Source: Candidatus Saccharimonadota bacterium (GTDB taxonomy: Bacteria > Patescibacteriota > Microgenomatia > UBA1406 > GWC2-37-13). Taken from it: 32,000 bases of DNA. The position numbers were made by a program, and so were the translations under genes. The notes beneath the pieces were generated by a model, which did no database searches, was not told the DNA's origin, and worked only from the letters and a program-made list of their open reading frames with translations. Where the stretch lies: the NCBI GenBank assembly GCA_016700135.1, contig CP065004.1, forward strand, positions 30,001 through 62,000. The letters are read 5' to 3'. Below, one piece after another: positions 6,541 to 22,903 of this stretch. Numbering within the stretch: the stretch's first letter is position 1; the number at the start of each line of letters is the position of its first letter.

Positions 6541-7116
6541 TTATTTCAATAGTTCCTCTTCCTGGCCGACAAGCATGATCTTCGGCTGTTTCAGGAATTT
6601 CCAAATGAAAGGATCATTATTACGTTTTCTGAACTGAAGTTCATCCTCCTGCATGACGGTATAATTGATATCCCAGCCGAGGTCCTTTTTTGCCGCCTGC
6701 ATTATACTTTCAACTTCAGGAATGACGACAATACCCACGAGAAGTACATAAATTTCGTCTTCTTTAACTGCGATCTTCTTTGAAAATTTTGTCGATACGG
6801 CAATAAATTTGATCTTCCCGAGACGGCTGATATTTTTATAAATCAGCTGAGCAAGCGTCGTCTGCTTGGTAAATATTCTCAGGAACTCATCAAAAAGAGG
6901 GAAATTCTTATTAAGAGCATAAAATACTTTATTTGTACGCCGTTCGCGGGTAAGGACTTTGGATTCATGGAGAATATCAAGTTCGCGCTTGACGGCGTTT
7001 ACCTCTTCATCAGTCAATCTCACAATTTCTCGCAGATAATACGTTTGATCAATATTATGGTAGTAAAGTTCAAGTATTTTCCTGCGTACTTTTGACGGTA
7101 TGAGATTTTCTAACAT
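6541..7116 (-). CDS. Putative winged-helix DNA-binding protein
   Basis: 191 aa. The N-terminal RRKILELYY...YYLREIVRLTDEEVNAVKRELDILHESKVL resembles an ArsR/MarR-type wHTH. The C-terminal half is not recognised. Confidence 0.4.
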   Translation of the reverse strand: MLENLIPSKVRRKILELYYHNIDQTYYLREIVRLTDEEVNAVKRELDILHESKVLTRERRTNKVFYALNKNFPLFDEFLRIFTKQTTLAQLIYKNISRLGKIKFIAVSTKFSKKIAVKEDEIYVLLVGIVVIPEVESIMQAAKKDLGWDINYTVMQEDELQFRKRNNDPFIWKFLKQPKIMLVGQEEELLK

Positions 7117-7149
7117 AATCGCTTCAATTAATTAGTCCAATTATAATGC

Positions 7150-8301
7150 TTAATAGGTAACTTTGTTGCCTGAAGGAAGGATCGAAATCCAGATCTGTCC
7201 GCGGACAAGATCAATTTCCTTCCCCTTCGAGTCATAAAAACGCATCATATCGGTGGCTTTCGGCTTTTTCCACGTACCTTCTATAGCTTCACCGTTCTGG
7301 AAAATAATGGCATCATCGGAACCGATAACATCATACAGCATATGTTCTCCGTGCTCGTAGCCGTCATTTGCGACACTTTCATTTGCAAAAGCAACGATAA
7401 CATTTTTGGATGCTAATTGTTCTTCCGTATTTTTATCTACATGAGGGTCTCCGCCGTTAACACGCTTGTAGCTATTGGTTACGGCGTCATAATTCCACTG
7501 GACTGTATATGCCGAACCCAGGTTGTTGTCCCAGAAGTCATAGTTGATCTTTGCTACATCTCCGCGCGATCCTTCTTTTGCATCATCCTGGAAATTCCAC
7601 GGTTCCCAGTCTTCGTCCCACGCGACACCATCTTCATCAACGTTTGTAAGGTCTCTATTTTTGGCGGCATAATCCCAGAGCTTCAATGTATTTGTATATA
7701 CCGTGTGTTCAGTCGCCCGTCCGGGAAGACGATCATAATCCCTCCAGTAATTCGGGAACGGTACGGCAAACTGGTCCATATCATTGTATCCGAACCAACC
7801 GAGTTTTTTGATCTCACCCAGGGCATCTGCCGGTCCCGGAGTGTTTGCACCGCCGACATGACCGTAAAGAGGGTTATTGCCGTATCCCTGCAGCAGTCTT
7901 ATAAAATAAATACGTGCCGATCGCACCGATCCGACAATTTTCGATTCATCGCAGTAATACATAACAAGAAAACGGGTTATTCCGCCTTCCGCGACTGCTT
8001 CATGGACGATATCAGCGCTCGACAATCCCGATTGAGGTCTTGCTTCAGTATTGTTTTGTACCATAATACCGAGAGGTCTCCTTTTCTCCCATTTCGCACG
8101 CTGATTTTTAGAATACATTTTACCGTTGAGAGGACATTCTTCAGTCTTGGGGGCAGTATCAACAACGTTGCCGTCTGCATCGACGACAGGAGCTTCATAT
8201 TCAGAAGTATCAACTGTATTTGCACTGAAGTATTTGTAAGATCCGAAACTGGTCACCAGATAAATTACCGCACCGACAATCAATATAATTTTTTTGTTCA
8301 T
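7150..8301 (-). CDS. DUF3048 (YerB-like) envelope protein
   Basis: 383 aa with an N-terminal TM/signal anchor. RPLGIMVQNNTEARPQSGLSSADIVHEAVAEGGITRFLVMYY matches my memory of the DUF3048 signature. Confidence 0.65.
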   Translation of the reverse strand: MNKKIILIVGAVIYLVTSFGSYKYFSANTVDTSEYEAPVVDADGNVVDTAPKTEECPLNGKMYSKNQRAKWEKRRPLGIMVQNNTEARPQSGLSSADIVHEAVAEGGITRFLVMYYCDESKIVGSVRSARIYFIRLLQGYGNNPLYGHVGGANTPGPADALGEIKKLGWFGYNDMDQFAVPFPNYWRDYDRLPGRATEHTVYTNTLKLWDYAAKNRDLTNVDEDGVAWDEDWEPWNFQDDAKEGSRGDVAKINYDFWDNNLGSAYTVQWNYDAVTNSYKRVNGGDPHVDKNTEEQLASKNVIVAFANESVANDGYEHGEHMLYDVIGSDDAIIFQNGEAIEGTWKKPKATDMMRFYDSKGKEIDLVRGQIWISILPSGNKVTY

Positions 8302-8851: not shown

Positions 8852-9043
8852 ATGGACATTGAGTTTTATGACGTAAAAAACCGACGAAAAGTTTCTATTC
8901 CTTCTTCACAGGTTGAAAAAGTAACTTATGAAAGAGAAACAAAAAGTGGAGACAAGCAAATTCGTTATGCAGTAAAAGCTGAAAAAGACGGCGTCAAACT
9001 GACCAAATTCGTCAGCAAAGAAACATGGGATAGTATTTCATAA
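8852..9043 (+). CDS. Small (63 aa) mildly basic, beta-rich protein; possibly nucleic-acid binding
   Basis: The ATG at 8852 is preceded by the strongest SD in the window (AAGGAGGTG, 8837-8845, 6-nt spacing). The track ORF starts at an upstream GTG (8843) that lies inside the SD. By my count the protein has 14 K/R against 11 D/E. Confidence 0.7.
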   Translation: MDIEFYDVKNRRKVSIPSSQVEKVTYERETKSGDKQIRYAVKAEKDGVKLTKFVSKETWDSIS

Positions 9044-9048
9044 CTATC

Positions 9049-9600
9049 TCACTCAACGAGCTCAAAAGTATGGACAATTTCATACTCTGGGTTCGTTGGC
9101 TTTGTTATGCTTTTATACAAATGGATTTCCGTAACCGGGAATTCGATTGTAGTGTTCAACCTCTGAAGTTTTTTCCGCAGATGGAAATATTGTTGTTTTG
9201 ACGGCAATTTATATCTTGCCAGTGTCATATGCGGGATATATTTCTTTTTCAAATCATTTTCCTTCTCCATACTGAAAAGGTCGACCGTCCTCTCACGGAT
9301 CTTTTCAAAATCTTTATTCCGGCTGAAAGCAAGCCGTAAAATAATTCCCTGATGAACAAACATCCCGGTCTCAAGTGCAAAAAGCCTTGTCGGCTGTATA
9401 TCAAACGTCGAGCGCTCGATTGCTTCAATAATATACGGCATTTTGTCTTCACTTCGTTCGCCTAAAAAGGCAATCGTCACGTGGTAATTTTTTTGAGGTA
9501 CCCAGTTGAATTCATGGTAATCCCGTTTCAATCCGTCATACAAAGCATCAAGCTCCGATACGACATTTTCAGGAATAGCCGCCGCAAGAAATAAACGCAT
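9049..9600 (-). CDS. thpR: RNA 2',3'-cyclic phosphodiesterase / 2'-5' RNA ligase family (2H phosphoesterase)
   Basis: 183 aa with two HxT motifs (HVTIAFLG and HMTLARY) at the spacing typical of LigT/ThpR. Confidence 0.8.
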   Translation of the reverse strand: MRLFLAAAIPENVVSELDALYDGLKRDYHEFNWVPQKNYHVTIAFLGERSEDKMPYIIEAIERSTFDIQPTRLFALETGMFVHQGIILRLAFSRNKDFEKIRERTVDLFSMEKENDLKKKYIPHMTLARYKLPSKQQYFHLRKKLQRLNTTIEFPVTEIHLYKSITKPTNPEYEIVHTFELVE

Positions 9601-9623
9601 AGTAATTCAGTAATTAATAACAG

Positions 9624-10091
9624 TTATAACGAATTAAGAATTTTTGAAGTTGAAAATGCTTCAAGCAAAGGACTTACCTCCACAACGTCTGCCCCGACAG
9701 CCAGCGTCTGCTTTCGTTTCCGCTCAATGTTGGGATCTCCCTTGGTAACCGCAACCAATGACGGACGGATCACTTCAACCATCCGACCGTACTCCTTATC
9801 TTCGGTGAAGAAAGGAAGCAGTATAACATAATCAACTACATCCAGACTTGCTAGGATTTCAGCACGCTGCAATTGGGAATGAATGGGAGTACGGTGTTTC
9901 CGTTTATTTATCGCCTCATCCGATTCAAGAGCGATTATAAGAATATCTCCACTTGCCTTGGCATCGCGTAAAAAAGAGAAATGTCCGTAATGCATCAAAT
10001 CAAAACAGCCTCCGCATAATACCGAAATCTTGCCGTCCCACTTATCACGCAAGCTTTCGACACTCTCGTATTTCCATATGTTCTGTTTCAT
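9624..10091 (-). CDS. Cytidylyltransferase-like nucleotidyltransferase (HxGH family; RfaE domain II / TagD-like)
   Basis: CGGCFDLMHYGHFSFL contains the HxGH motif. I chose the start at the ATG 10091-10089 (MKQNIWKY...) because TGtTATAAT (10106-10098, minus) sits 6 nt upstream. The longer track ORF (to 10184) would begin upstream of that promoter. Confidence 0.7.
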   Translation of the reverse strand: MKQNIWKYESVESLRDKWDGKISVLCGGCFDLMHYGHFSFLRDAKASGDILIIALESDEAINKRKHRTPIHSQLQRAEILASLDVVDYVILLPFFTEDKEYGRMVEVIRPSLVAVTKGDPNIERKRKQTLAVGADVVEVSPLLEAFSTSKILNSL

Positions 10092-10141
10092 ATTACAATT
10101 ATAACAAGCCAACTCTTCATTCCGTTGTCTTAATCTATCAT

Positions 10142-12421
10142 ATGTTGCTGAAAACAGAAATACAGGATACATCACAGAAAGCATTAATTGTCGCTCCGCA
10201 TGACACTCTGTTTCTTAAAAAACTTAAAAATAAGCTAAAAGAAATGAATTTGGATGTATTTTCAACTTCAACTCCGGTCACGGATTACTCCAAATATGAT
10301 ATCTGTATCTTCGTACAATTCACGGATATTCTCCTGCCGTCAATAAAGAACCTGACTGATACTAAGTTTATTTTTATACTGTTTAATGAATATGAACTTG
10401 CTCAGACATATGCTTCGTTTGCATATGAATACAAACTGCAGCACATAAAAATACTGAATCTTGAGACCAGTCCTGCACAGTATGACAAAGATATCGATAC
10501 TCTTTTCTGGTTTTCCTTTTCCCGGACTGAGGATATATTTCTTCATATCTTCCATCAGCAACCGTTCGAACAAGTCAAAAAATCGAAACCGAAAAAAAAG
10601 CCGTTTTCCTGGAAACAATTTCTTACACCCAGAAAACTTGTCTCATTCGGTATAGCATTATTGGTTTTCTCGCAATTTATTTTCATGATTCCTCTTCTCG
10701 GAAGTACTGTCTCCCATTATTTCGCTTACAAACAGTTGATTAAAGGGAATGTTGAAACCGCAGAACCGCATCTTGAGCGTGGCAGCGCAATGCTTGCTGC
10801 AGGTGAAGGTTTATTTAGTTTTTCTAAACCCGTTTTGTACTTTTTTTCAATCGGTTTGCCGTTTGAGAATCTGATACAACTGAACTCATCGGCATCCGTC
10901 ATTATGTCCAAAGCATCTGACCTTCAACAGGATGCAAAGTTGCTGGCCGACGGTATCTTTGAAAAAAACAAGTCTGATCAGGATGTGACCGAACTCATAG
11001 AAGCAAAAGAAAGGCTGAATTCAAATGTTACTGATGTCCGGGAACAAATCGACCTGCTGGAAAATAAGATGCCCACCTGGAATGCACAGCTGACTGACGC
11101 AAAAGAAAAACTCAGGAAGATTGATCAGTCTCTCGGTTTTTATGAATCGATCGGTCCTCATCTGGATACTCTTCTTGCCCGTGATACGGACAAAAAATAT
11201 CTTCTGTTATTTGCCAATAATATGGAACTCCGGCCGGGAGGTGGTTTTATCGGATCATATGCTATTGTTCATGTTTCAAATTACACAATCGGTGATATAC
11301 AGGTCTACGACGTGTACGATGCCGACGGACAGTTGACATCACATATCGCCCCGCCCGAACCGATTTCAAAATTTATGGAGCAACCGTTCTGGTATCTTCG
11401 TGATTCGGCATTTACGGGTGATTTTATCGACAATTTCACTCAGGCAGAGGAATTCCTGGAAATTGAAGTCGGAGAAACGGATTTTGACGGAGGACTGCTT
11501 CTCACAACAACGGCAGTGAAAAATATTTTGAGTACTGTTGACAGTCTGTATATTCCCGATTATCGAGATACCATTACCGCAGAGAATTTTTATCTGAAAG
11601 CACAGCTATATGCCGAAGAAGAGTTTTTCCCCGGATCGATACAGAAAAAAAGCTTTTTATCCGATGTAATGGATCAGATGCTTTTGCATCTGGCAGATGC
11701 CGATATGGAAGCGCTCTTTTCAAATATTAAAGATTCACTGAATCAAAAGCAGCTGGTTTTGTACAGCAAAGACCCCGGGCTTCAATCGGTTTTTGAGGAA
11801 CAGTACTGGTCAGGACGTATGTTGTCACCAAGCTGTACCGTATCAGATCACTGTATTCCTGATTATGCTTACCAGCTGGACGCCAACCTCGGTGTCAACA
11901 AAGCAAATTTTTTCGTCCAGCGGCCGACTTCTCTGAAGGTTTCGATTGATTCCTCGGGAAAGATAGTGAACACGCTTTCAGTTATGTATTCCAATGACTC
12001 CAATCAGGGGGTGTTTCCCGGGGGAACCTACAAAAATTATTTTCAGGTTCTTCTTCCTCCGAATTCATTCATCCAAAGTGTAACGGTGGACGGATCTCCG
12101 GTTGAGGAATATGATGAAACCAATTTTACCTACAAGACTGTCGGTTTCCTCCTAACTGTTGAGCCGCAGGAAAAACGGAAAGTCGAGATCATATACCGTC
12201 TTCCGACAACTATTATCCAGGGAGCAGGAGTATATCAGCTAATCCTGCAGAAACAGATCGGCTCTCCGAATTATGATCTGCAGTTTGCTTTTGAGGTGCC
12301 GTCAAACATTTCGGTGACCCGACATAATCTTTCTCCTCTTGCAGAGAGTGATAAAATCCTCTATAATACCTCAGTTTCATCAGATAAGATTTTCCTGATA
12401 GAATTTACTAAAAACCAATAA
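10142..12421 (+). CDS. DUF4012 domain envelope protein
   Basis: LLLFANNMELRPGGGFIGSYAIV matches my memory of the DUF4012 signature. One TM segment (LVSFGIALLVFSQFIFMIPLLG) sits after a cytoplasmic N-domain. I chose the start at ATG 10142. The track's extra 63 codons (from 9953) are antisense to the cytidylyltransferase gene. Confidence 0.65.
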   Translation: MLLKTEIQDTSQKALIVAPHDTLFLKKLKNKLKEMNLDVFSTSTPVTDYSKYDICIFVQFTDILLPSIKNLTDTKFIFILFNEYELAQTYASFAYEYKLQHIKILNLETSPAQYDKDIDTLFWFSFSRTEDIFLHIFHQQPFEQVKKSKPKKKPFSWKQFLTPRKLVSFGIALLVFSQFIFMIPLLGSTVSHYFAYKQLIKGNVETAEPHLERGSAMLAAGEGLFSFSKPVLYFFSIGLPFENLIQLNSSASVIMSKASDLQQDAKLLADGIFEKNKSDQDVTELIEAKERLNSNVTDVREQIDLLENKMPTWNAQLTDAKEKLRKIDQSLGFYESIGPHLDTLLARDTDKKYLLLFANNMELRPGGGFIGSYAIVHVSNYTIGDIQVYDVYDADGQLTSHIAPPEPISKFMEQPFWYLRDSAFTGDFIDNFTQAEEFLEIEVGETDFDGGLLLTTTAVKNILSTVDSLYIPDYRDTITAENFYLKAQLYAEEEFFPGSIQKKSFLSDVMDQMLLHLADADMEALFSNIKDSLNQKQLVLYSKDPGLQSVFEEQYWSGRMLSPSCTVSDHCIPDYAYQLDANLGVNKANFFVQRPTSLKVSIDSSGKIVNTLSVMYSNDSNQGVFPGGTYKNYFQVLLPPNSFIQSVTVDGSPVEEYDETNFTYKTVGFLLTVEPQEKRKVEIIYRLPTTIIQGAGVYQLILQKQIGSPNYDLQFAFEVPSNISVTRHNLSPLAESDKILYNTSVSSDKIFLIEFTKNQ

Positions 12422-14572: not shown

Positions 14573-15536
14573 CGAGATATCTGTTATCTCGCCATTATTA
14601 ACTTTTAACCGTGTAATCGTGCCATTTCGATTCTATTTTTTCTTCCTGTTTGCCACATTTCTGACCCTTTTTTATCCCGGAGACTATCCGTATTTTCAGC
14701 TTTTGGCATACAACAGAGAAACGTTTGCCGAACTGAAAACAACGGAACAATATACCATCCATCCCATACCCCAAGTCAGCCAATCCTTCCCTCCCTATGT
14801 GACAGCGGCGGGTGTTTATATTGTCGAATATGATTCATTTACCCCCATTTATAAAAAGAATGAACATGCTGAATTTTTCCCGGCATCAACTACAAAAATC
14901 ATTACCGCCCTTGTTGCCAATGATCTTTATAGCGCTCAGGACATCGTGACGGTAAATCAGCCGCATATCGAAGGCCAGGTCATGGGGCTTGTTCCGGGAG
15001 AAAAAATTACGGTTGAAAATCTGCTGTACGGAGCACTCGTTCATTCCGGAAATGATGCTGCCTATGCCCTTGCTGACGGAAAAGGTTTCCGCTTTTTCGT
15101 TGAAGAAATGAACAATAAGGCACAGACACTCGGGATGAAAAACTCTCACTTTACCAATCCTGCAGGACTTGATAACATCCAGCAAAAAACAACTCCGTTT
15201 GATCTGAGTATCGCAGCACGTGAACTCCTGAAAAACCCGTATCTCCGCAAAATGGTCGGAACCAAGGAAATCATCATCTCAGATGTAGATTACAATACTT
15301 TCCATACACTGACGAACGTCAACAAGCTATTGGGTGAGATTCAGGGGCTGGGAGGTTTGAAAACCGGATACACAGAAGCTGCCGGAGAAAACCTTGTCAG
15401 CTTTTATCGGCACAACGGACATGACTATATCATTGTCGTTATGAAAAGTGATGACCGGTTCCTTGATACGAGAGTTCTGGTTGATTGGATAAAAAATAAT
15501 GTGACGTATATCGATCCTCCGCTTTCGGCTTATTGA
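14520..15536 (+). CDS. D-alanyl-D-alanine carboxypeptidase (PBP5/S11 family)
   Basis: SxxK (PASTTKI), SGN (HSGNDAA) and KTG (LKTGYT) occur in order after an N-terminal TM segment. The start is uncertain. ATG 14520 overlaps aspS by 53 nt, and an in-frame GTG at 14622 is an alternative. Confidence 0.8.
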   Translation: MMKNSLQNWVFPWTIKNNEISVISPLLTFNRVIVPFRFYFFFLFATFLTLFYPGDYPYFQLLAYNRETFAELKTTEQYTIHPIPQVSQSFPPYVTAAGVYIVEYDSFTPIYKKNEHAEFFPASTTKIITALVANDLYSAQDIVTVNQPHIEGQVMGLVPGEKITVENLLYGALVHSGNDAAYALADGKGFRFFVEEMNNKAQTLGMKNSHFTNPAGLDNIQQKTTPFDLSIAARELLKNPYLRKMVGTKEIIISDVDYNTFHTLTNVNKLLGEIQGLGGLKTGYTEAAGENLVSFYRHNGHDYIIVVMKSDDRFLDTRVLVDWIKNNVTYIDPPLSAY

Positions 15537-16603
15537 AGAGCTTCATCTGCCACCGCTGTAACGTATGCCACAACACGGTTTTCTCCTAAGAAGACATATA
15601 CCGGCTGAACATATTCCTGATATGTATCCGGTTCATAATATGCCATAAATACCTTTTGGATTTTGACTTCACCGTTTGCTGCACCTGCCGAAACCACCAT
15701 TCCTTTCCCTTTTTGAAGATCGTCCCATGCCTGTTGTGCCGATCTGAGCGGATAGAGCCCGACCTGATCCGGAGACATTTCAAAGTATGAGATTCTCGCC
15801 CGTATCGGTCGGTTATCATCTCCTCCGGTCAGAAACAAAACATAATTCGGACTGTTGTAATAAGTGGAAGTTACAACGGGAAGCCCGTCAATATCTTCGG
15901 GAAAAAAGTCTACCTCTGCCATATTGGATCCTGCCGGATTGTTGAGAGTTGCGACCTCCCGTGTCGTGGGATCCAGACGCATATATATGACGTTTTTGTC
16001 TCCGAGAGAAAGCGGCGTCGGATACCGCCCGACATTTGTCAGAAATGCCGTCGCATCTGAGACTACCGTGGATTCAAGGTTCGGGTCAACTACCGTATCG
16101 ACATTGTCCGCATCAGTCACCTTATAATCATAGGTGAAGTTGAACGTCCTGATATCAATAGACATCTTCCTGACTCCGTCATCAAATACTGCCGTTTTAT
16201 CCTGCAGCTGATGCTGGATAATATCGGTATCAATTCCGGCAGCTTTTGCCATCGCATATATTTTTGCCAGAAATCCGAACGTTGCAGTTTGTTGAGGTAC
16301 GAAATAGACATTAGCAGCAGATGTTGCTTCATCGACATTCGGAGTACCGTCCAGAGTATCAAGCACCCACGTATAGTTTGAAGACGGCTTTGCATCCGTG
16401 ATTTGAGGACGTTTGATAGGTCCGAAGATCTGATCTGTCGCAACTGGTGTCGTATCGGCTACAGGTTTCGGAGCAGTTGATTGTATTTCTAAATACAAAA
16501 GAAGCAGCCTGAAACCAAATACAAAAATCAGAATAACAAGACCTGTAATGATCCCGACAGGTGCAAATTTTCTGGTGTAGTAACTGACTTCAGTAAGTGT
16601 CAT
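15530..16603 (-). CDS. Hypothetical membrane-anchored extracytoplasmic protein
   Basis: 357 aa with an N-terminal TM segment (VGIITGLVILIFVFGFRLLLLYL). No family recognised. Its 3' end overlaps the carboxypeptidase gene by 7 nt. Confidence 0.6.
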   Translation of the reverse strand: MTLTEVSYYTRKFAPVGIITGLVILIFVFGFRLLLLYLEIQSTAPKPVADTTPVATDQIFGPIKRPQITDAKPSSNYTWVLDTLDGTPNVDEATSAANVYFVPQQTATFGFLAKIYAMAKAAGIDTDIIQHQLQDKTAVFDDGVRKMSIDIRTFNFTYDYKVTDADNVDTVVDPNLESTVVSDATAFLTNVGRYPTPLSLGDKNVIYMRLDPTTREVATLNNPAGSNMAEVDFFPEDIDGLPVVTSTYYNSPNYVLFLTGGDDNRPIRARISYFEMSPDQVGLYPLRSAQQAWDDLQKGKGMVVSAGAANGEVKIQKVFMAYYEPDTYQEYVQPVYVFLGENRVVAYVTAVADEALQ

Positions 16604-17920: not shown

Positions 17921-17929
17921 GTTTTTCCT

Positions 17930-17974
17930 AAAAGAAAAGCGTCCTTCCGGTACCTGTCGGCACCGTCCGGACGC
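17930..17974 (-). terminator. Intrinsic terminator of the minus-strand three-gene operon
   Basis: A GC-rich imperfect hairpin has outer arms GCGTCC (17939-17944) and GGACGC (17969-17974) with inner CCGGTACC/GGCACCG pairing. On the minus strand it is followed by TTTTCTTTT. Confidence 0.6.
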
Positions 17975-17998
17975 TCATCTTGCTTCAAACGTTTTCAG

Positions 17999-18445
17999 CT
18001 ACTTCTCTATCTCCCAGATCTCAAATGAACGCGGCGCACGGAAATGAATTCCTTCCTCAGGATCGATCGACCAGACCAGCCCGGCAACGACTTCTTCGTC
18101 CCTGCAGGGAAATGTCAGGTCGTTCTTTTCGGAGATCTCAACCGATTCTTCGCCGGTCGGATTTCCATCAAGACTTACTTGGCGACGGGTCACGGTGGCG
18201 CTGTCTTCGATCGCATCAACCCTGAGTTCCCAACGCTGGTACTCTTCCTGGCATTTTACGGCCATGCCGTACGTGTGCCCTGCCAGGAAATACGTACTCA
18301 CGTTTCTGTTTGGGTTGAAGATGAATTCGACGACCCACCAAATGCCGATTGCAACATAAATCAGTATGCGGATGAGATCCAGCAGAGCCTTCAAACAGCT
18401 GGCCCAGTTGAGATCTTCCTCTGATTCTTCCTTCTTCCATGCCAT
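17999..18445 (-). CDS. Hypothetical single-pass membrane protein (island gene C), paralog of 18942-19535
   Basis: 148 aa with one TM segment (LIRILIYVAIGIWWVVEFIF). It shares with gene A: EF..NPN.N.S.Y, VKC.(D/E)...RW, a second Cys, and EEV....WSID. The SD GAGGTG is at 18455-18450. The start overlaps the gene B stop by 1 nt. Confidence 0.75.
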   Translation of the reverse strand: MAWKKEESEEDLNWASCLKALLDLIRILIYVAIGIWWVVEFIFNPNRNVSTYFLAGHTYGMAVKCQEEYQRWELRVDAIEDSATVTRRQVSLDGNPTGEESVEISEKNDLTFPCRDEEVVAGLVWSIDPEEGIHFRAPRSFEIWEIEK

Positions 18446-18945
18446 CAGGCACCTCGCTTCATTCTGCCTTTGGCCCAGGCACTGAGCGTGACAATCACGC
18501 CTTCAATGGCATACCCAAGGACTGATGTGCCGAGTGCCAGATACCCAAACTCCATAGCATAGACCGGGTATGAGGAGAGGCCCGACGGGTTACGGTCAAG
18601 GTACTGGTAGTACTGGTACCACTCGCGAAGCATCAGATGATCGTTGTCGATGAGAAACACGGCAACTGCCGGCCATACGACGAAACAGATCAAACCGATC
18701 ATGCCGCTGTAGACAAGATGCCAAAGCCAGTGGAGCTTTGTACCTCGATCGATAATCCCATCAATGTACTTATCCACCAGGTCGAAACTGTCCTCGCCGA
18801 TTTTGAGCGGACCGAGGATGATCAACAAGGTGAAAAACAAGCTGAGGAGAATCTGCGTCGACACAAGGTTCGCAACTGAGCTGACACAAGCGACCAGAAT
18901 ACTGAGCAGGATTACGAAGATCATGAAGGCATTGCGGTTGTTCAT
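18445..18945 (-). CDS. Hypothetical 4-TM integral membrane protein (island gene B)
   Basis: 166 aa with about four hydrophobic segments. The strong SD GGAAGGAGAAGG lies upstream. The start overlaps the gene A stop (ATGA). No family recognised. Confidence 0.75.
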   Translation of the reverse strand: MNNRNAFMIFVILLSILVACVSSVANLVSTQILLSLFFTLLIILGPLKIGEDSFDLVDKYIDGIIDRGTKLHWLWHLVYSGMIGLICFVVWPAVAVFLIDNDHLMLREWYQYYQYLDRNPSGLSSYPVYAMEFGYLALGTSVLGYAIEGVIVTLSAWAKGRMKRGA

Positions 18946-19535
18946 TTTCCTTCTCCTTCCATACTTGGGATGATGTAATACCGGGATTCTGCGATTTCAT
19001 ATTTGCGTACTCTCAAATGCACTTCCCGCTTTGTGCGGTCAATGCTCCAAAAGTACGCGACCTCTTCACTCTTGCCTTCACAGCCTTCAAGATACAGAGA
19101 GCTGCGTTCTGCAACCTCAATTTCCTGAACTCGTGAAGGTTCATCTTCCGGTGCATTTTGTACCCAAACGAGGAGACGGACATGGTTTTTATCGTTGCCG
19201 TACCACATCTCACCCATCTGGAAGTTCCACCGGATCTTCTGATCCTCACACTTGACTCCGGCGACCGAATACACGGTGTCGCCGTTTGCATAGACGCTGT
19301 AGTTGTTGTTCGGGTTTATTCCGAACTCCCATAAGGCCATAACACCAATGACAATGAGTAATGCCACAGCATTGGCAACAGCCTTTAATACTGCATCTAC
19401 AGTCATCTCACCACACGACTTATCCCGATCATCATCCACGATAGCCTCCTCTCTTGAATTCAGATGGTTATAGATAAACTGCCTTTCGGCAGATAGTAGC
19501 CGAAACGTCTCTGCACTGTTCATAGGGCATACCAT
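18942..19535 (-). CDS. Hypothetical single-pass membrane protein (island gene A), paralog of 17999-18445
   Basis: 197 aa. A cytoplasmic N-region of about 45 aa is followed by a TM segment (AVALLIVIGVMALWEFGI) and an extracytoplasmic domain of about 125 aa sharing motifs with gene C. An alternative start is the ATG at 19523. Confidence 0.75.
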   Translation of the reverse strand: MVCPMNSAETFRLLSAERQFIYNHLNSREEAIVDDDRDKSCGEMTVDAVLKAVANAVALLIVIGVMALWEFGINPNNNYSVYANGDTVYSVAGVKCEDQKIRWNFQMGEMWYGNDKNHVRLLVWVQNAPEDEPSRVQEIEVAERSSLYLEGCEGKSEEVAYFWSIDRTKREVHLRVRKYEIAESRYYIIPSMEGEGK

Positions 19536-19575
19536 ACAGAATGCTTATTCCATATTTGGCCCTACAGAATGGGAT

Positions 19576-19604
19576 ATTAAATTAAATTAAAGGTAAAAAG
19601 TCAA
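19576..19604 (-). promoter_or_regulatory. Promoter of the A-B-C operon (TTGACT-17-TTTAAT)
   Basis: On the minus strand the -35 TTGACT is at 19604-19599, the spacer is 17 nt, and the -10 TTTAAT is at 19581-19576, about 40 nt upstream of the gene A ATG. Confidence 0.45.
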
Positions 19605-19655
19605 TTATTATAGGATATACTTACTGTTATTAAAAAGGGAGTACTGTCAGTAATA

Positions 19656-19684
19656 TTGACAAACCTGTCATTCAATATCAAGAT
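19656..19684 (+). promoter_or_regulatory. Candidate divergent promoter (TTGACA-17-CAAGAT) for the hairpin / small-ORF transcript
   Basis: A perfect -35 TTGACA is at 19656-19661, the spacer is 17 nt, and a weak -10 CAAGAT is at 19679-19684. An 11-bp palindrome TACTGtCAGTA (19642-19652) abuts the -35. Confidence 0.3.
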
Positions 19685-19703
19685 CGTTCGATATATAAAG
19701 TTC

Positions 19704-19776
19704 TAATCAGATTACCGTAACATGCCTCAGTAAATCTGATTATCTTACTTCTTGCCTTGCGATTTCCAGTAAGATA
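19704..19776 (+). other. Two tandem stem-loops (10-bp and 9-bp stems, 19- and 18-nt loops)
   Basis: Hairpin 1 pairs TAATCAGATT (19704-19713) with AATCTGATTA (19733-19742). Hairpin 2 pairs TATCTTACT (19741-19749) with AGTAAGATA (19768-19776). Both stems are perfect and both loops contain TGCCT. Confidence 0.5.
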
Positions 19777-19821
19777 TTTCGCTCCGAACTTTGACGTATA
19801 TGAATAGAAAGGAATGGCGTA

Positions 19822-20061
19822 ATGGCCAATATCTATGTCGCTCCGTGTGGTCGAGTTTTTGACTTGGATGCTTTGGTTGACGGACAACCTGCCCCTAGTG
19901 GAACTACAAGCATGCAAGGTCATACATCCGTATTCTGGCCTGATCAAGGGCATCTTTCCTGGAATAATCCAGGACAAACTGATGCACATTGGTCTACCCA
20001 CAGTGAAGGTGGTACAAAAGCAGGAAGAAAACCTCCTGGTGCTACTTTCAGAGGTGAATAG
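19822..20061 (+). CDS. Small (79 aa) His/Trp/Gly/Pro-rich hypothetical protein
   Basis: The SD AAAGGA (19808-19813) lies 8 nt before the ATG. By my count codon position 1 is G in 29/79 codons and position 3 is T in 35/79. Two consecutive decapeptides share QGH.S...P. Two overlapping ORFs (78 aa on plus, 129 aa on minus) look like shadow frames. Confidence 0.5.
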   Translation: MANIYVAPCGRVFDLDALVDGQPAPSGTTSMQGHTSVFWPDQGHLSWNNPGQTDAHWSTHSEGGTKAGRKPPGATFRGE

Positions 20062-20085
20062 TATCAAGTAATCGCAAGGTAACTT

Positions 20086-20111
20086 GAGGGGGAGAAGTAA
20101 TTCTCCCTCTC
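20086..20111 (+). terminator. Hairpin after the small ORF (possible weak terminator)
   Basis: GAGGGGGAGAA-gtaa-TTCTCCCTCTC forms an 11-bp stem with one G-T pair, followed by ATTTTC. The T-tract is short, so termination may be partial. Confidence 0.4.
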
Positions 20112-20135
20112 ATTTTCATCATCTATAATACCAAT

Positions 20136-20555
20136 ATGCATATTTCCGGACAAAAACCAGGTAAGGATATTGATCAAAAACACTGGACAGTACAAAATGA
20201 AGACAGAATTAAAGTTCATTTCAACATGTATCTTTCAGAATTTAAGGTTACATCTCATTACCTTCTCATTGATAACGATCCATATTCAAAGAAAGAATTT
20301 GTTTTTCTTGCTATCGTCCGTGACTATGTTAATTATCATATCTCATTCGATATGTTTTGCGTTCTTCTTGGAGAACTATGGATGACTTCAGAAAAATCAT
20401 ACGATTTCACGAAAGAAACAAAAATTGAAGAAATGTGCCACTTTGGATTTGAACTACAGTGGTATATGAGAAATGATCCTGAAAGAAGCGCCGGCTGGCT
20501 CACCGAAATACTGGAGTACTATAAGAAAAATAAAACAAAGATCGGGGAAAAGTAA
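20136..20555 (+). CDS. Hypothetical cytoplasmic protein (139 aa)
   Basis: AT-rich ORF with no TM segment. TATAAT (20124-20129) lies 6 nt upstream of the ATG. It is followed by a strong bidirectional terminator. No family recognised. Confidence 0.65.
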   Translation: MHISGQKPGKDIDQKHWTVQNEDRIKVHFNMYLSEFKVTSHYLLIDNDPYSKKEFVFLAIVRDYVNYHISFDMFCVLLGELWMTSEKSYDFTKETKIEEMCHFGFELQWYMRNDPERSAGWLTEILEYYKKNKTKIGEK

Positions 20556-20564
20556 TCATTATAT

Positions 20565-20596
20565 AAAAAAAAGAGAGCGTACGCTCTCTTTTTTTT
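20565..20596. terminator. Bidirectional intrinsic terminator
   Basis: A8-GAGAGC-GTAC-GCTCTC-T8 is a perfect palindrome. It serves the 139-aa gene on the plus strand and tRNA-Tyr on the minus strand. Confidence 0.8.
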
Positions 20597-20601
20597 CAGG
20601 G

Positions 20602-20817: not shown

Positions 20818-22275
20818 ATGATTTATATTCAGATTACTTTGATTGTCCTCTGCCTTATCGCAGTCGTCTCATACTTCACAAATCCTTTCGTCAGATTTTC
20901 ACTGATACAAGATCTTTCAAAAGTGGATGAAATCGATAATCAGCTGGTGCTGAAAAAGATAAGGTCGGTTAAGCTCCGCTATCATCTTTTCTGGAAACAT
21001 TTTTCCATGCTTAAATCAGCCTGGCATATTGTAGGAAGCCGCTTCGGAAGACGGAATCGCACCCGATCTTCTATCGTGGCTGATATTATCAAAGAGATTC
21101 ATGAGAAACGGTTTGATCCCAAAAATATGTACCTGATCTCGGGAGATCATTTCAGTGTCCTGTATCCCCGATCCCTCGGCATTTTTTATCACAGTATTCT
21201 GGACCCGCGAACGGCACTGAATATGGATGACTGGCTCAACCGTCAAAGAATTTACCTCAAAACCCTGGCATACGCTTTGAATGTTTTCAGTCAATCAGAA
21301 GAGTTGTCAACGACAATCGTGCCGACTACTCCGAACTCTGTCATATTGCTGAATATTTATGCTACCCCGTCTGATACTTTATACAGTCTGCTGTATGCCT
21401 TTGACCAGCTTCTGGGGAGCAAATCGCTTGAGGAAATATATCCGTTTAAAAAAAGTACACCATACAAACTGGCAACAACTGAAACAACGCAGGACATGCT
21501 GCATGAGTATAGAGCAATCTTAAGAAGGCATTACTATACGTACAAAGCTACGGTCTTTGATACCGAATCGGGTTTTATAAAAAAAGATATTTTACTTTCC
21601 GGAACGAAAGACATCGTTAAAAAGTATGGAGGCTTTTATGATAATGTAATATTTTGGAAAACAACGGAGCTGGCACAAAAACTTGGATTGATAGAGAATG
21701 ATGAAGCCTTCCTTGCCGTATATAAAAAACGGATTTTGGCTGAATATTGGCGGGAAGAAGGTCTGTTTTTGGAAGACATGAGTGATGAAGCACGTGACGG
21801 GAATTGGTATTCATCTGATTGGCTTATCGCATTTCAAACCGGATTTCTATCCGTAAAAAATCCTAAAGATCGCACGTATCTCAATAAGGCAGTCTCTTAT
21901 ATTATTGAAAATGAGATTGATCAGCCGTTTCCGATAAGATATCACAATGATTTTCGAAAAAAACGACTGCACTTTCCTGTAAATATCGGAGCTCCGTACT
22001 ACGGATCACTTGTCATCTGGAGCCATTGGGGAATGGAATACATAAAACTTCTTATTGCTTTGTCACAATACGGCAAGTCAGAAAAATATCTCACTTATGC
22101 CGCAAAGCATCTTGAAACATACGAATTCAATATTTCAAGATATCGCGGATATCCTGAGGTATACAACCGGTTCGGCGATTTCTATACTTCCTTTTTCTAC
22201 CGCAGTGTACGGACTACAGGATGGATCATCTCATATGAACAGGCGTATGAGATGCTGAAGGCGTACGATAAATAA
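20818..22275 (+). CDS. Membrane-anchored hypothetical protein, possibly an (alpha/alpha)6-barrel glycoside-hydrolase-like fold
   Basis: 485 aa with an N-terminal TM segment (IQITLIVLCLIAVVSYF). YYGSLVIWSHWGMEYIKLLIAL and GYPEVYN are reminiscent of C-terminal motifs in GH15/GH63/GDE-type barrels. This is a weak, eye-only call. Confidence 0.3.
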   Translation: MIYIQITLIVLCLIAVVSYFTNPFVRFSLIQDLSKVDEIDNQLVLKKIRSVKLRYHLFWKHFSMLKSAWHIVGSRFGRRNRTRSSIVADIIKEIHEKRFDPKNMYLISGDHFSVLYPRSLGIFYHSILDPRTALNMDDWLNRQRIYLKTLAYALNVFSQSEELSTTIVPTTPNSVILLNIYATPSDTLYSLLYAFDQLLGSKSLEEIYPFKKSTPYKLATTETTQDMLHEYRAILRRHYYTYKATVFDTESGFIKKDILLSGTKDIVKKYGGFYDNVIFWKTTELAQKLGLIENDEAFLAVYKKRILAEYWREEGLFLEDMSDEARDGNWYSSDWLIAFQTGFLSVKNPKDRTYLNKAVSYIIENEIDQPFPIRYHNDFRKKRLHFPVNIGAPYYGSLVIWSHWGMEYIKLLIALSQYGKSEKYLTYAAKHLETYEFNISRYRGYPEVYNRFGDFYTSFFYRSVRTTGWIISYEQAYEMLKAYDK

Positions 22276-22303
22276 AGATAAACCTGTGGTACAATAACTG
22301 GAT

Positions 22304-22903
22304 ATGACTGACCAAACATACAAAGATTTTTGGAAATGGTTTCAGCAACAGGAAGAGCGGCTTTTTTACTATGAAGCATATGAGAAAGAACTTCTGCCGC
22401 AGGTGTTGAATGAACTCCAAAAAGTGAACAAAGATCTCGTATTTGAAATCGGTCCCGAAATGGAAGGACAGCGTGAATTTGTCGTGAGTGCAAACGGCAT
22501 GAAATCAGCTTTTTCCGATGTTATTGAGCTTGTGAAGTATGCCCCTGATCTGGACAGATGGCATATCATTCCTTTCAGACAGCGAAAAGATGTCTCCGAA
22601 CTTGAAGTCCAGCTTGATGATCTCATCCTGACTCCGAATGATATCAGCTTTTCGTATCAGAAAGAAAAAGGACGGATTAATCTTTCACTGTATGTTGAGG
22701 ATATGGATGATGAAGACGAAAAAATGTATCATATGGTGTTTCTCATTCTCGATAATATCATCGGAGAATACGATGTGGAGATGAAAATCGGATCCATCGA
22801 TATTTATTCCGACGGAGATCTGGCGGAGGATGAACAGCTTTTCCCGCTGACCAAACTTCCTCATATCATTGACAGTTTGAGTTCTAATTCAACAGTACAC
22901 TAA
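22304..22903 (+). CDS. Hypothetical acidic cytoplasmic protein (199 aa)
   Basis: ORF with TGgTACAAT (22287-22295) ending 8 nt upstream of the ATG. No family recognised. Confidence 0.65.
   Translation: MTDQTYKDFWKWFQQQEERLFYYEAYEKELLPQVLNELQKVNKDLVFEIGPEMEGQREFVVSANGMKSAFSDVIELVKYAPDLDRWHIIPFRQRKDVSELEVQLDDLILTPNDISFSYQKEKGRINLSLYVEDMDDEDEKMYHMVFLILDNIIGEYDVEMKIGSIDIYSDGDLAEDEQLFPLTKLPHIIDSLSSNSTVH

Follow-up and report, generated by a model that had tools for sequence, protein, structure and literature searches.

In the ExbB-ExbD, TolQ-TolR and MotA-MotB systems, a polytopic membrane protein is combined with small bitopic subunits whose N-termini lie inside, and two ExbD paralogs are often encoded in one operon; the single transmembrane (TM) helix of ExbD, TolR and MotB carries a conserved protonatable Asp. 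Claudins are laid out as TM1, a large extracellular region, TM2, a cytoplasmic loop, TM3, an outer loop, TM4 and a cytoplasmic C-terminus. Pam pili, which are specific to the Candidate Phyla Radiation (CPR), are beta-rich, disulfide-containing surface proteins with membrane-anchored partners, and homologues are reported from Microgenomatia, including a Roizmanbacteria genome (bioRxiv 10.64898/2026.03.03.709456). Here we analyze a three-gene operon, A-B-C, from the chromosome of an uncultured member of Candidatus Roizmanbacteria (CPR/Patescibacteria). The segment studied, hereafter the window, is a stretch of 32,000 nucleotides of contig CP065004.1, and coordinates refer to it unless another locus is named. 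A and C are paralogs with one TM helix and a predicted outer beta domain, B is a four-helix membrane protein, and the three are probably subunits of one integral-membrane complex.

A preliminary description of the window had proposed a translationally coupled operon, and a check of the open reading frames (ORFs) found the genes head to tail on the minus strand at the coordinates it gave. The coupling and the lengths of B (166 aa, 18445-18945) and C (148 aa, 17999-18445) were borne out. The A stop codon ends at 18942 and the B ATG begins at 18945, which creates an ATGA overlap, while the B stop codon and the C ATG share the single nucleotide 18445. GGAG-type ribosome sites for B (GGAGAAGGA, internal to A) and C (GAGGTG, 5 nt upstream of the C start) each lie inside the preceding gene. 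The 197 aa given for A had to be revised. That length belongs to the ORF that opens at an upstream ATG (18942-19535), whereas five full-length orthologs of A have 165 aa and an N-terminus, M[SG]DDRDKSCGEM, that aligns to a GTG at 19439. An AGGAGG Shine-Dalgarno sequence (19445-19450, minus strand) stands 5 nt before this GTG, and GGAG-type sites are found in the same place in the orthologs. As the ortholog starts map there, A is assigned to 18942-19439 with 165 aa. The upstream ATG at 19535 is in frame with A because this genome has lost 27 nt of leader, and by-hand inspection of at least one ortholog, L011, showed that the upstream frame runs into a TGA. In the NCBI entries IPM65_00230, IPM65_00235 (B) and IPM65_00240 (A), the genes are called with 193 aa for A, 110 aa for B and 88 aa for C. 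Judged by the orthologs, which support 165, 166 and 148 aa, the public annotation miscalls all three genes. Comparison of orthologs gives ratios of nonsynonymous to synonymous substitution rates (dN/dS) of 0.14 (A), 0.15 (B) and 0.12 (C); all three genes are therefore under purifying selection, about five times more relaxed than that on the neighboring AspRS (0.024) and a conserved 357-aa protein (0.029).

The proposed paralogy of A and C proved highly significant, with a BLASTP E value of 3e-12 (27% identity over 150 aa) and an hhalign probability of 99.8% (E 7e-30) between the A-type and C-type profiles. Both subfamilies persist among distant relatives, which indicates that the duplication is old. 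As described, A and C share the motifs EF..NPN.N.S.Y and VKC.(D/E)...RW, the second Cys and WSID; only the spacing of EEV....WSID is approximate, since the EEV of A and that of C do not align but lie two residues apart. A consists of a short acidic N-terminal tail, one TM helix at about residues 17-37, a juxtamembrane EF-x-x-NP-x-NN segment and an all-beta domain of about 110 aa that contains Cys64 and Cys120. C has the same architecture of TM helix plus beta domain and the same Cys pair. In an AlphaFold2 (AF2) model of A with a moderate mean predicted local distance difference test score (pLDDT) of 75.7, a helix (14-41) leads into a row of nine antiparallel strands with short turns between them. 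Across the 27 family members over which conservation was counted, Glu38, Asn42, Pro43, Asn46, Cys64, Cys120, Trp131 and Arg143 are invariant or nearly so. Both cysteines are found in 26 of the 27 and neither in the remaining one (P0037); being kept or lost together is the pattern expected of a structural disulfide in an extracytoplasmic domain. The paired occurrence of Cys64 and Cys120, together with the nine-strand model and the outside placement predicted below, fits the putative disulfide-bonded extracytoplasmic beta domain suggested in the preliminary description.

B was correctly recognized as a small polytopic membrane protein: hydropathy and the secondary structure of a low-confidence AF2 model both give four hydrophobic helices. 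A first hydrophobic block of about 50 residues, comprising two helices, leads into a conserved acidic amphipathic helix (51-62) and a third helix (73-100), after which come an aromatic outer loop and the fourth helix. In the alignment, Pro46, Asp55, Lys59, His76, Gly84, Trp91, Tyr112, Ala137, Gly144 and Tyr145 are invariant, and Glu51, Asp58, Asp62, Pro127, Tyr129, Gly134 and Glu148 nearly so. These conserved residues are distributed on both faces of the membrane and within it, and TM4 carries the element Gly144-Tyr145-x-x-Glu148.

Natural fusions connect the two families. P0033 (299 aa) and P0035 (291 aa) each consist of an A-type protein followed by a B-type region, identified by hhalign with a probability of 94.3% (E 1e-7) in P0033 and 96.6% (E 5e-10) in P0035. 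A and B are thus physically linked in two lineages. The fusions do not contain the first helix of B, and their first hydrophobic block past the beta domain is shorter than that of free B (about 32 versus about 50 aa), which fits a replacement of the first helix of B by the helix of A itself. Lys and Arg residues of B cluster at both termini and in the 48-72 loop; in A and C, Lys and Arg precede the TM helix and are almost absent from the next 25 aa. The fusion layout and this charge distribution together predict that the beta domain lies outside. In the predicted topology, A would thus have its N-terminus inside and its beta domain outside, and B would have both termini inside and four helices between them. 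At locus L017, a fusion is followed, with a 23-nt overlap, by a second A/C-type protein that has three C-terminal helices of its own; no B-like similarity was detected in these helices, nor in any of the C-terminal helices of P0041 and P0042.

The family is real, conserved and very rare. A word-indexed search of 5.8 billion proteins yielded seven A and seven B relatives, all with at least 49% identity; eight C-type sequences came from a profile search. When 1.84 billion cluster representatives were scanned exhaustively by HMMER, a combined A and C profile gave 24 matches at E <= 1e-3, 16 of them at E <= 1e-10. The 90%-identity clusters of the relatives contain one to three sequences each, none with an informative name. 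Neither 50,697 phage nor 72,556 plasmid records contained a homolog, nor did IMG/VR, and of two scans of metagenome collections, one gave no match and the other only a contig that was already known. Readable contexts are small-genome and CPR-like, with a 1.0-Mb contig, DUF4012 and typical CPR housekeeping neighbors. Judging by these sequences, the complex appears restricted to a few CPR/Patescibacteria lineages, namely Roizmanbacteria and CPR-like relatives. Three of the loci, L012, L013 and L014 (CAZDDM010000033.1, CAYMVU010000029.1 and CAZYNM010000001.1), are titled 'uncultured Gammaproteobacteria' or 'Pseudomonadales'. These labels look wrong, as the gene content and synteny of L012 and L013 match Roizmanbacteria-type loci and L014 reads as CPR-like.

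The preliminary description had made its proposal depend on A/C-like and B-like genes occurring together elsewhere, and they do stand together, even as fusions. In the lineage of the window, at least seven distinct contigs carry the triplet at the same place, in the same order and with the same tight spacing. On one side lie tRNA-Tyr, a 485-aa protein, a 198-aa protein, an amylase and GroESL, and on the other NAGPA, the 357-aa protein, a DD-carboxypeptidase, AspRS, L25 and DUF4012. The immediately flanking genes vary by contig and include an AadA_C/AbiEii-like nucleotidyltransferase, a CHASE protein, an SBF transporter and an AP-endonuclease-2 protein. Being closely related, these loci do not count as independent evidence; more divergent loci do. 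At the distant locus L014, whose GroEL is 59% identical to that of the window, the genes A (170 aa), B (167 aa) and C (152 aa) are arranged as in the window and overlap at their junctions, and the proteins share 36%, 31% and 33% identity with their window counterparts. Furthermore, L021 carries A'-B-C, L022 carries A-B, and the gene for P0034, on a short contig, is overlapped by the next gene by 4 nt. At L016, the stand-alone A-B fusion is flanked by two pairs of paralogous small proteins that belong to no family (6574-7777 and 8996-10322 of that locus). The first pair, of 171 and 172 aa, shares a WPD..G motif; in the second, of 209 and 192 aa, at least the 209-aa protein ends in a hydrophobic stretch. 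These pairs may be another lineage-specific module.

Neither A/C nor B can be assigned to a known family or fold, and in this sense both families are new. This agrees with the preliminary description, in which no family was recognized: for none of the three proteins was there a confident profile hit. Pfam gave best E values of 0.05-1, corresponding to 9-14 bits against cut-offs of about 20-30, and no Pfam hit was common to any two of the 27 family members. NCBIfam, PADLOC and PHROGs produced no match, sequence-profile searches of the PDB with four alignments no meaningful match, and Foldseek against the PDB with the A model no significant one (best E 0.018, TM-score <= 0.31). In BFVD, the only matches were marginal and to uncharacterized phage proteins. 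Marginal Ig V-set hits, obtained with profile A2, disappeared with the broader profile A4 and are regarded as noise. No description of the A/B/C family was found in the literature.

Several specific candidates were rejected. Type IV pilins have a class III signal peptide, in which a short basic leader ends in Gly and is followed by a hydrophobic residue at +1 and Glu at +5. The tails of A and C are acidic, the C-type proteins have no junction Gly, and the G-E-M-T-V-D of A is an unconserved misfit, which argues against a pilin or pseudopilin; no pilin is among the Foldseek hits of A. A stator protein of the ExbD/TolR/MotB type is contradicted by the 27 sequences, which conserve no acidic residue in the TM helix (Glu38 lies after it), and by the lack of a Pfam hit. 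MreCD and CopCD were set aside because there was no model match or the defining motif was absent, and a VKOR/DsbB-like role of B because B has no conserved Cys. A known anti-phage defense system was rejected on the lack of a PADLOC hit and of phage, plasmid or IMG/VR relatives.

The operon has its own expression signals, as had been claimed. A sigma-70-type promoter at 19576-19604 on the minus strand comprises a -35 TTGACT (19604-19599), a 17-nt spacer and a -10 TTTAAT (19581-19576). In six orthologous loci, the -35 hexamer is invariant and the -10 is TATAAT in most; a generic promoter scanner missed the window promoter because its -10 lacks an A at position 2. Across the same loci, sequence conservation sets in abruptly at CCTATAATAATTGACTT, just upstream of the promoter, and the loci differ beyond it. 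The intrinsic terminator, previously placed at 17930-17974, spans 17923-17981 on the minus strand and consists of a long GC-rich hairpin (about 17932-17981) followed by UUUUCUUUU. Hairpin and tract together have a folding free energy of -34.5 kcal/mol (z -5.6), and none of 200 shuffled sequences folds as well.

Between promoter and A lies a structured 5' leader (19440-19575, minus strand) of about 135 nt in the window, which carries the 27-nt deletion, and about 162 nt in the orthologs. Together with the promoter, it spans window 19440-19604 and, in the orthologs, L001 9809-9997, L003 1062-1252, L004 6830-7020, L008 927-1117 and L011 723-912. Mean pairwise identity is 0.83-0.92 over 19468-19590 and 0.72 across the deletion block; in the coding parts it is 0.53-0.89, with synonymous divergence (dS) of the genes at about 0.9-2. 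The leader is thus conserved as much as the coding sequence, or more. RNAalifold predicts three hairpins, and the deletion takes out half of the second. The third (19470-19492, minus strand) is CUGCC-GAAA-GGCAG followed by UUUAUCUAU and is listed as terminator-like. Its stem is invariant, and two stable tetraloops alternate as its loop, GAAA (two loci) and UUCG (four loci). Rfam assigned no family to the leader at gathering thresholds, permissive scans stayed at chance level (at most 17 bits against 38-80), and in the window as a whole the tRNA alone passes gathering. No copy of the leader was found elsewhere in the examined loci, including the distant triplets; it stands only upstream of the A-type genes of this lineage. 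Inspection by eye revealed no leader-peptide start codon conserved between loci. Pairing of UUUCGGC with GCCGAAA could compete with the hairpin in the window and L011, but it was rejected as a conserved antiterminator because the four loci whose loop is UUCG do not retain it. We regard the leader as a candidate attenuator or riboswitch-like element.

Taken together, these data make it fairly likely that A, B and C assemble into one integral-membrane complex with the topology modeled above. The genes are coupled, they are co-inherited over a long distance and A and B are sometimes a single polypeptide, from which we infer the physical assembly of all three proteins. In the proposed arrangement, B would be a four-helix core with both ends in the cytoplasm, and A and C would each contribute a short cytoplasmic tail, one TM helix and an all-beta domain of about 110 residues outside, held by one disulfide. 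Next to the membrane, A and C carry the near-invariant motif W-E-F-x-x-N-P-x-N-N, which would probably pack on the aromatic outer loop of B. The acidic helix of B (E51/D55/D58/K59/D62), His76 and Glu148 would face the cytoplasm and the membrane interior. The outward A/C pair could then bind an external partner or ligand at the cell envelope, and B could couple it to the cytoplasmic side, either as a signal or through a path for a small solute or ion. The operon would be transcribed from its own conserved promoter and, in the Roizmanbacteria lineage, its expression would probably be gated by the structured leader that ends in the terminator-like hairpin.

Several observations weigh against this arrangement. 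The AF2 model of B is unreliable (pLDDT 49.7) and too poor for a structure search. Since A and C have N-terminal tails with a net acidic charge, these two proteins by themselves give the positive-inside argument only moderate strength. Some distant relatives are solitary, including an A-like gene without B at L019, the A-B fusion without a C partner at L016 and an A-like protein with unrelated extra helices at L020; the three-part stoichiometry is therefore not universal. Because the family is tiny, few independent lineages contribute to the evidence for co-occurrence. Only close relatives have the leader, which shows little covariation, and the window copy has the 27-nt deletion. Finally, a role in signaling or uptake is something we infer from anatomy only.

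The polar residues of B also allow a reading in which B is an ion or solute channel, a transporter or a membrane enzyme that uses His76, Glu148 and the Asp and Lys residues, with A and C as accessory extracytoplasmic subunits for substrate binding or gating; under this idea, the module would serve a metabolically reduced CPR cell in scavenging nutrients or lipids. We consider it unlikely, despite an invariant or near-invariant polar set in or near the membrane (H76, E148, Y145 and W91) and small-residue packing positions at G84, G134, A137 and G144. The strict up-and-down nine-strand meander of the A beta domain in the AF2 model would also suit it, as would the top Foldseek neighbors, non-significant matches to ligand-binding barrels such as a lipocalin-type histamine-binding protein (probability 0.69, TM-score 0.29). 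Yet no transporter, channel or enzyme family matched at any threshold, the structural matches of A are not significant, and no conserved ATPase or other energizing partner lies nearby. This idea overlaps the favored explanation and differs from it in the assumed output only. The surroundings of the operon invite another reading, an envelope morphogenesis or cell-wall module of the MreC/MreD or divisome type that works with neighboring peptidoglycan enzymes. In the window lineage, a DD-carboxypeptidase (Peptidase_S11) and an NAGPA phosphodiester glycosidase adjoin the operon; L014 has an FtsB-like gene, read from its translation and unscanned, and FtsH, which was Pfam-confirmed in L017 only; and Ddl, PEGA, MreB and WecG surround the solo A-like gene of L019. 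These neighbors nevertheless change by lineage and are common in small CPR genomes, and their association with the operon may be chance. As no MreC, MreD, RodZ or FtsQLB model in Pfam or NCBIfam shows similarity, and as 24 clusters are far too few for a core morphogenesis factor, we judge a cell-wall role quite improbable.

Defense or exclusion had been among the functions suggested in the preliminary description, and this suggestion gained no support. It would make the operon an accessory defense, phage-exclusion or toxin-immunity membrane module acquired horizontally beside a tRNA gene. The slot downstream of tRNA-Tyr is indeed variable, and in sister genomes it contains the AadA_C/AbiEii-like nucleotidyltransferase and the CHASE protein; near the L014 triplet, two tRNA-Met genes are 150 nt away and a XerC-like recombinase gene (read from its translation, unscanned) is 0.6 kb away. 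The proteins evolve about five times faster than their housekeeping neighbors, and the GC content at third codon positions (GC3) is raised to 0.51, 0.67 and 0.62 in A, B and C, against 0.33-0.475 in all 26 other window genes. Against this, neither PADLOC nor PHROGs gave a hit, no homolog occurs in the phage, plasmid or IMG/VR records, no att-like direct repeats flank the operon, and the triplet is constant while its neighbors vary. The window neighbors are housekeeping genes (SecDF, AspRS, L25 and GroEL), and the AbiEii-like nucleotidyltransferase is adjacent in sister genomes only. The raised GC3 is no signature of recent transfer, because it is also found in the distant L014 triplet, and the order GroES/GroEL, tRNA, A-B-C is common to lineages whose GroEL proteins are only 59% identical, which points to old vertical descent. 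On balance, a horizontally acquired defense module seems very improbable, and one membrane complex of A, B and C remains the explanation that we favor.

The GC3 excess is also present in the orthologs at L001, L004 and L008. Membrane-protein composition was rejected as its cause, since SecDF is normal, and so was high expression, since GroEL and L25 are normal. The dS of A (about 0.9) is roughly half that of the neighbors. Stop-free antisense frames of 93-191 codons extend over C and are probably a by-product. The variable stretch from tRNA-Tyr to the operon corresponds to 19640-20600 in the window, 7290-9800 in L001, 5460-6820 in L004 and 108-920 in L008. In sister genomes, the nucleotidyltransferase occurs there with or without a 77-aa ORF or the CHASE-domain protein. 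In the window, L003 and L011, the segment is unrelated and contains opposite-strand ORFs that belong to no family, of 78 and 139 aa in the window and of 78 aa in L003 and L011. A perfect 16+16-nt palindrome, AAAAAAAAGAGAGCGT/ACGCTCTCTTTTTTTT, lies at 20565-20596 between the 139-aa ORF and tRNA-Tyr and looks like a bidirectional terminator. Three further family-less proteins, of 357 aa (15530-16603, minus strand) and of 485 and 199 aa (20818-22903, plus strand), keep their synteny around the operon in those related contigs that are long enough to show it. An N-terminal hydrophobic stretch of the 357-aa protein resembles a membrane anchor, and with a dN/dS of 0.03 the protein is under very strong purifying selection.

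CPR/Patescibacteria account for a large share of bacterial diversity, and their envelope proteome is largely uncharacterized. The A/C beta-domain proteins and the B four-helix proteins form two linked orphan families that are now delimited by boundaries, diagnostic motifs, a topology model and fusions, which makes the A/B/C module a concrete target for structural or heterologous-expression work. The conserved leader RNA is a candidate for a new regulatory element. If the ectodomains did take part in host contact or scavenging, the module would bear on the life of reduced cells. At present it is a well-delimited, narrowly distributed unknown, and current views are unchanged.

Among described systems, MreC/MreD resembles the operon in that a bitopic protein with beta-rich outer domains is accompanied by a polytopic protein of about 160 aa, and an A-like gene adjoins mreB in L019. 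A and C are, however, half the size of MreC and have no MreC coiled coil, no model matches, and the distribution of the family is very narrow. The Pam pili differ in architecture: A and C are single-domain, N-terminally anchored proteins paired with a 4-TM protein. The ExbB-ExbD type is similar in gene content, with a small polytopic protein encoded alongside bitopic proteins of 140-165 aa that have their N-terminus inside and a folded extracytoplasmic domain. It differs in the conserved TM Asp, which A and C do not have, in the ectodomain, which is all-beta here and alpha/beta in ExbD and TolR, and in the absence of any Pfam or NCBIfam hit; CPR cells are also not known to have an outer membrane to energize. 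The topology resembles that of the eukaryotic claudins and tetraspanins -- the fusions P0033 and P0035 would run from TM1 through a large outer beta region with a predicted disulfide to TM2, then through a short cytoplasmic loop, TM3, a second outer loop and TM4 to a cytoplasmic C-terminus. A CPR-specific claudin/tetraspanin-like surface complex, with paired, disulfide-stabilized ectodomains for contact with the host cell that supports these ultra-small episymbionts, or for lipid or metabolite uptake from it, under a new ligand- or stress-responsive leader RNA, is a long shot. A, B and C are bacterial, no sequence or structural similarity to either family was detected, and the likeness is one of topology by analogy only; here, moreover, the part with the first helix and the ectodomain is usually a protein of its own and occurs twice, as A and as C.

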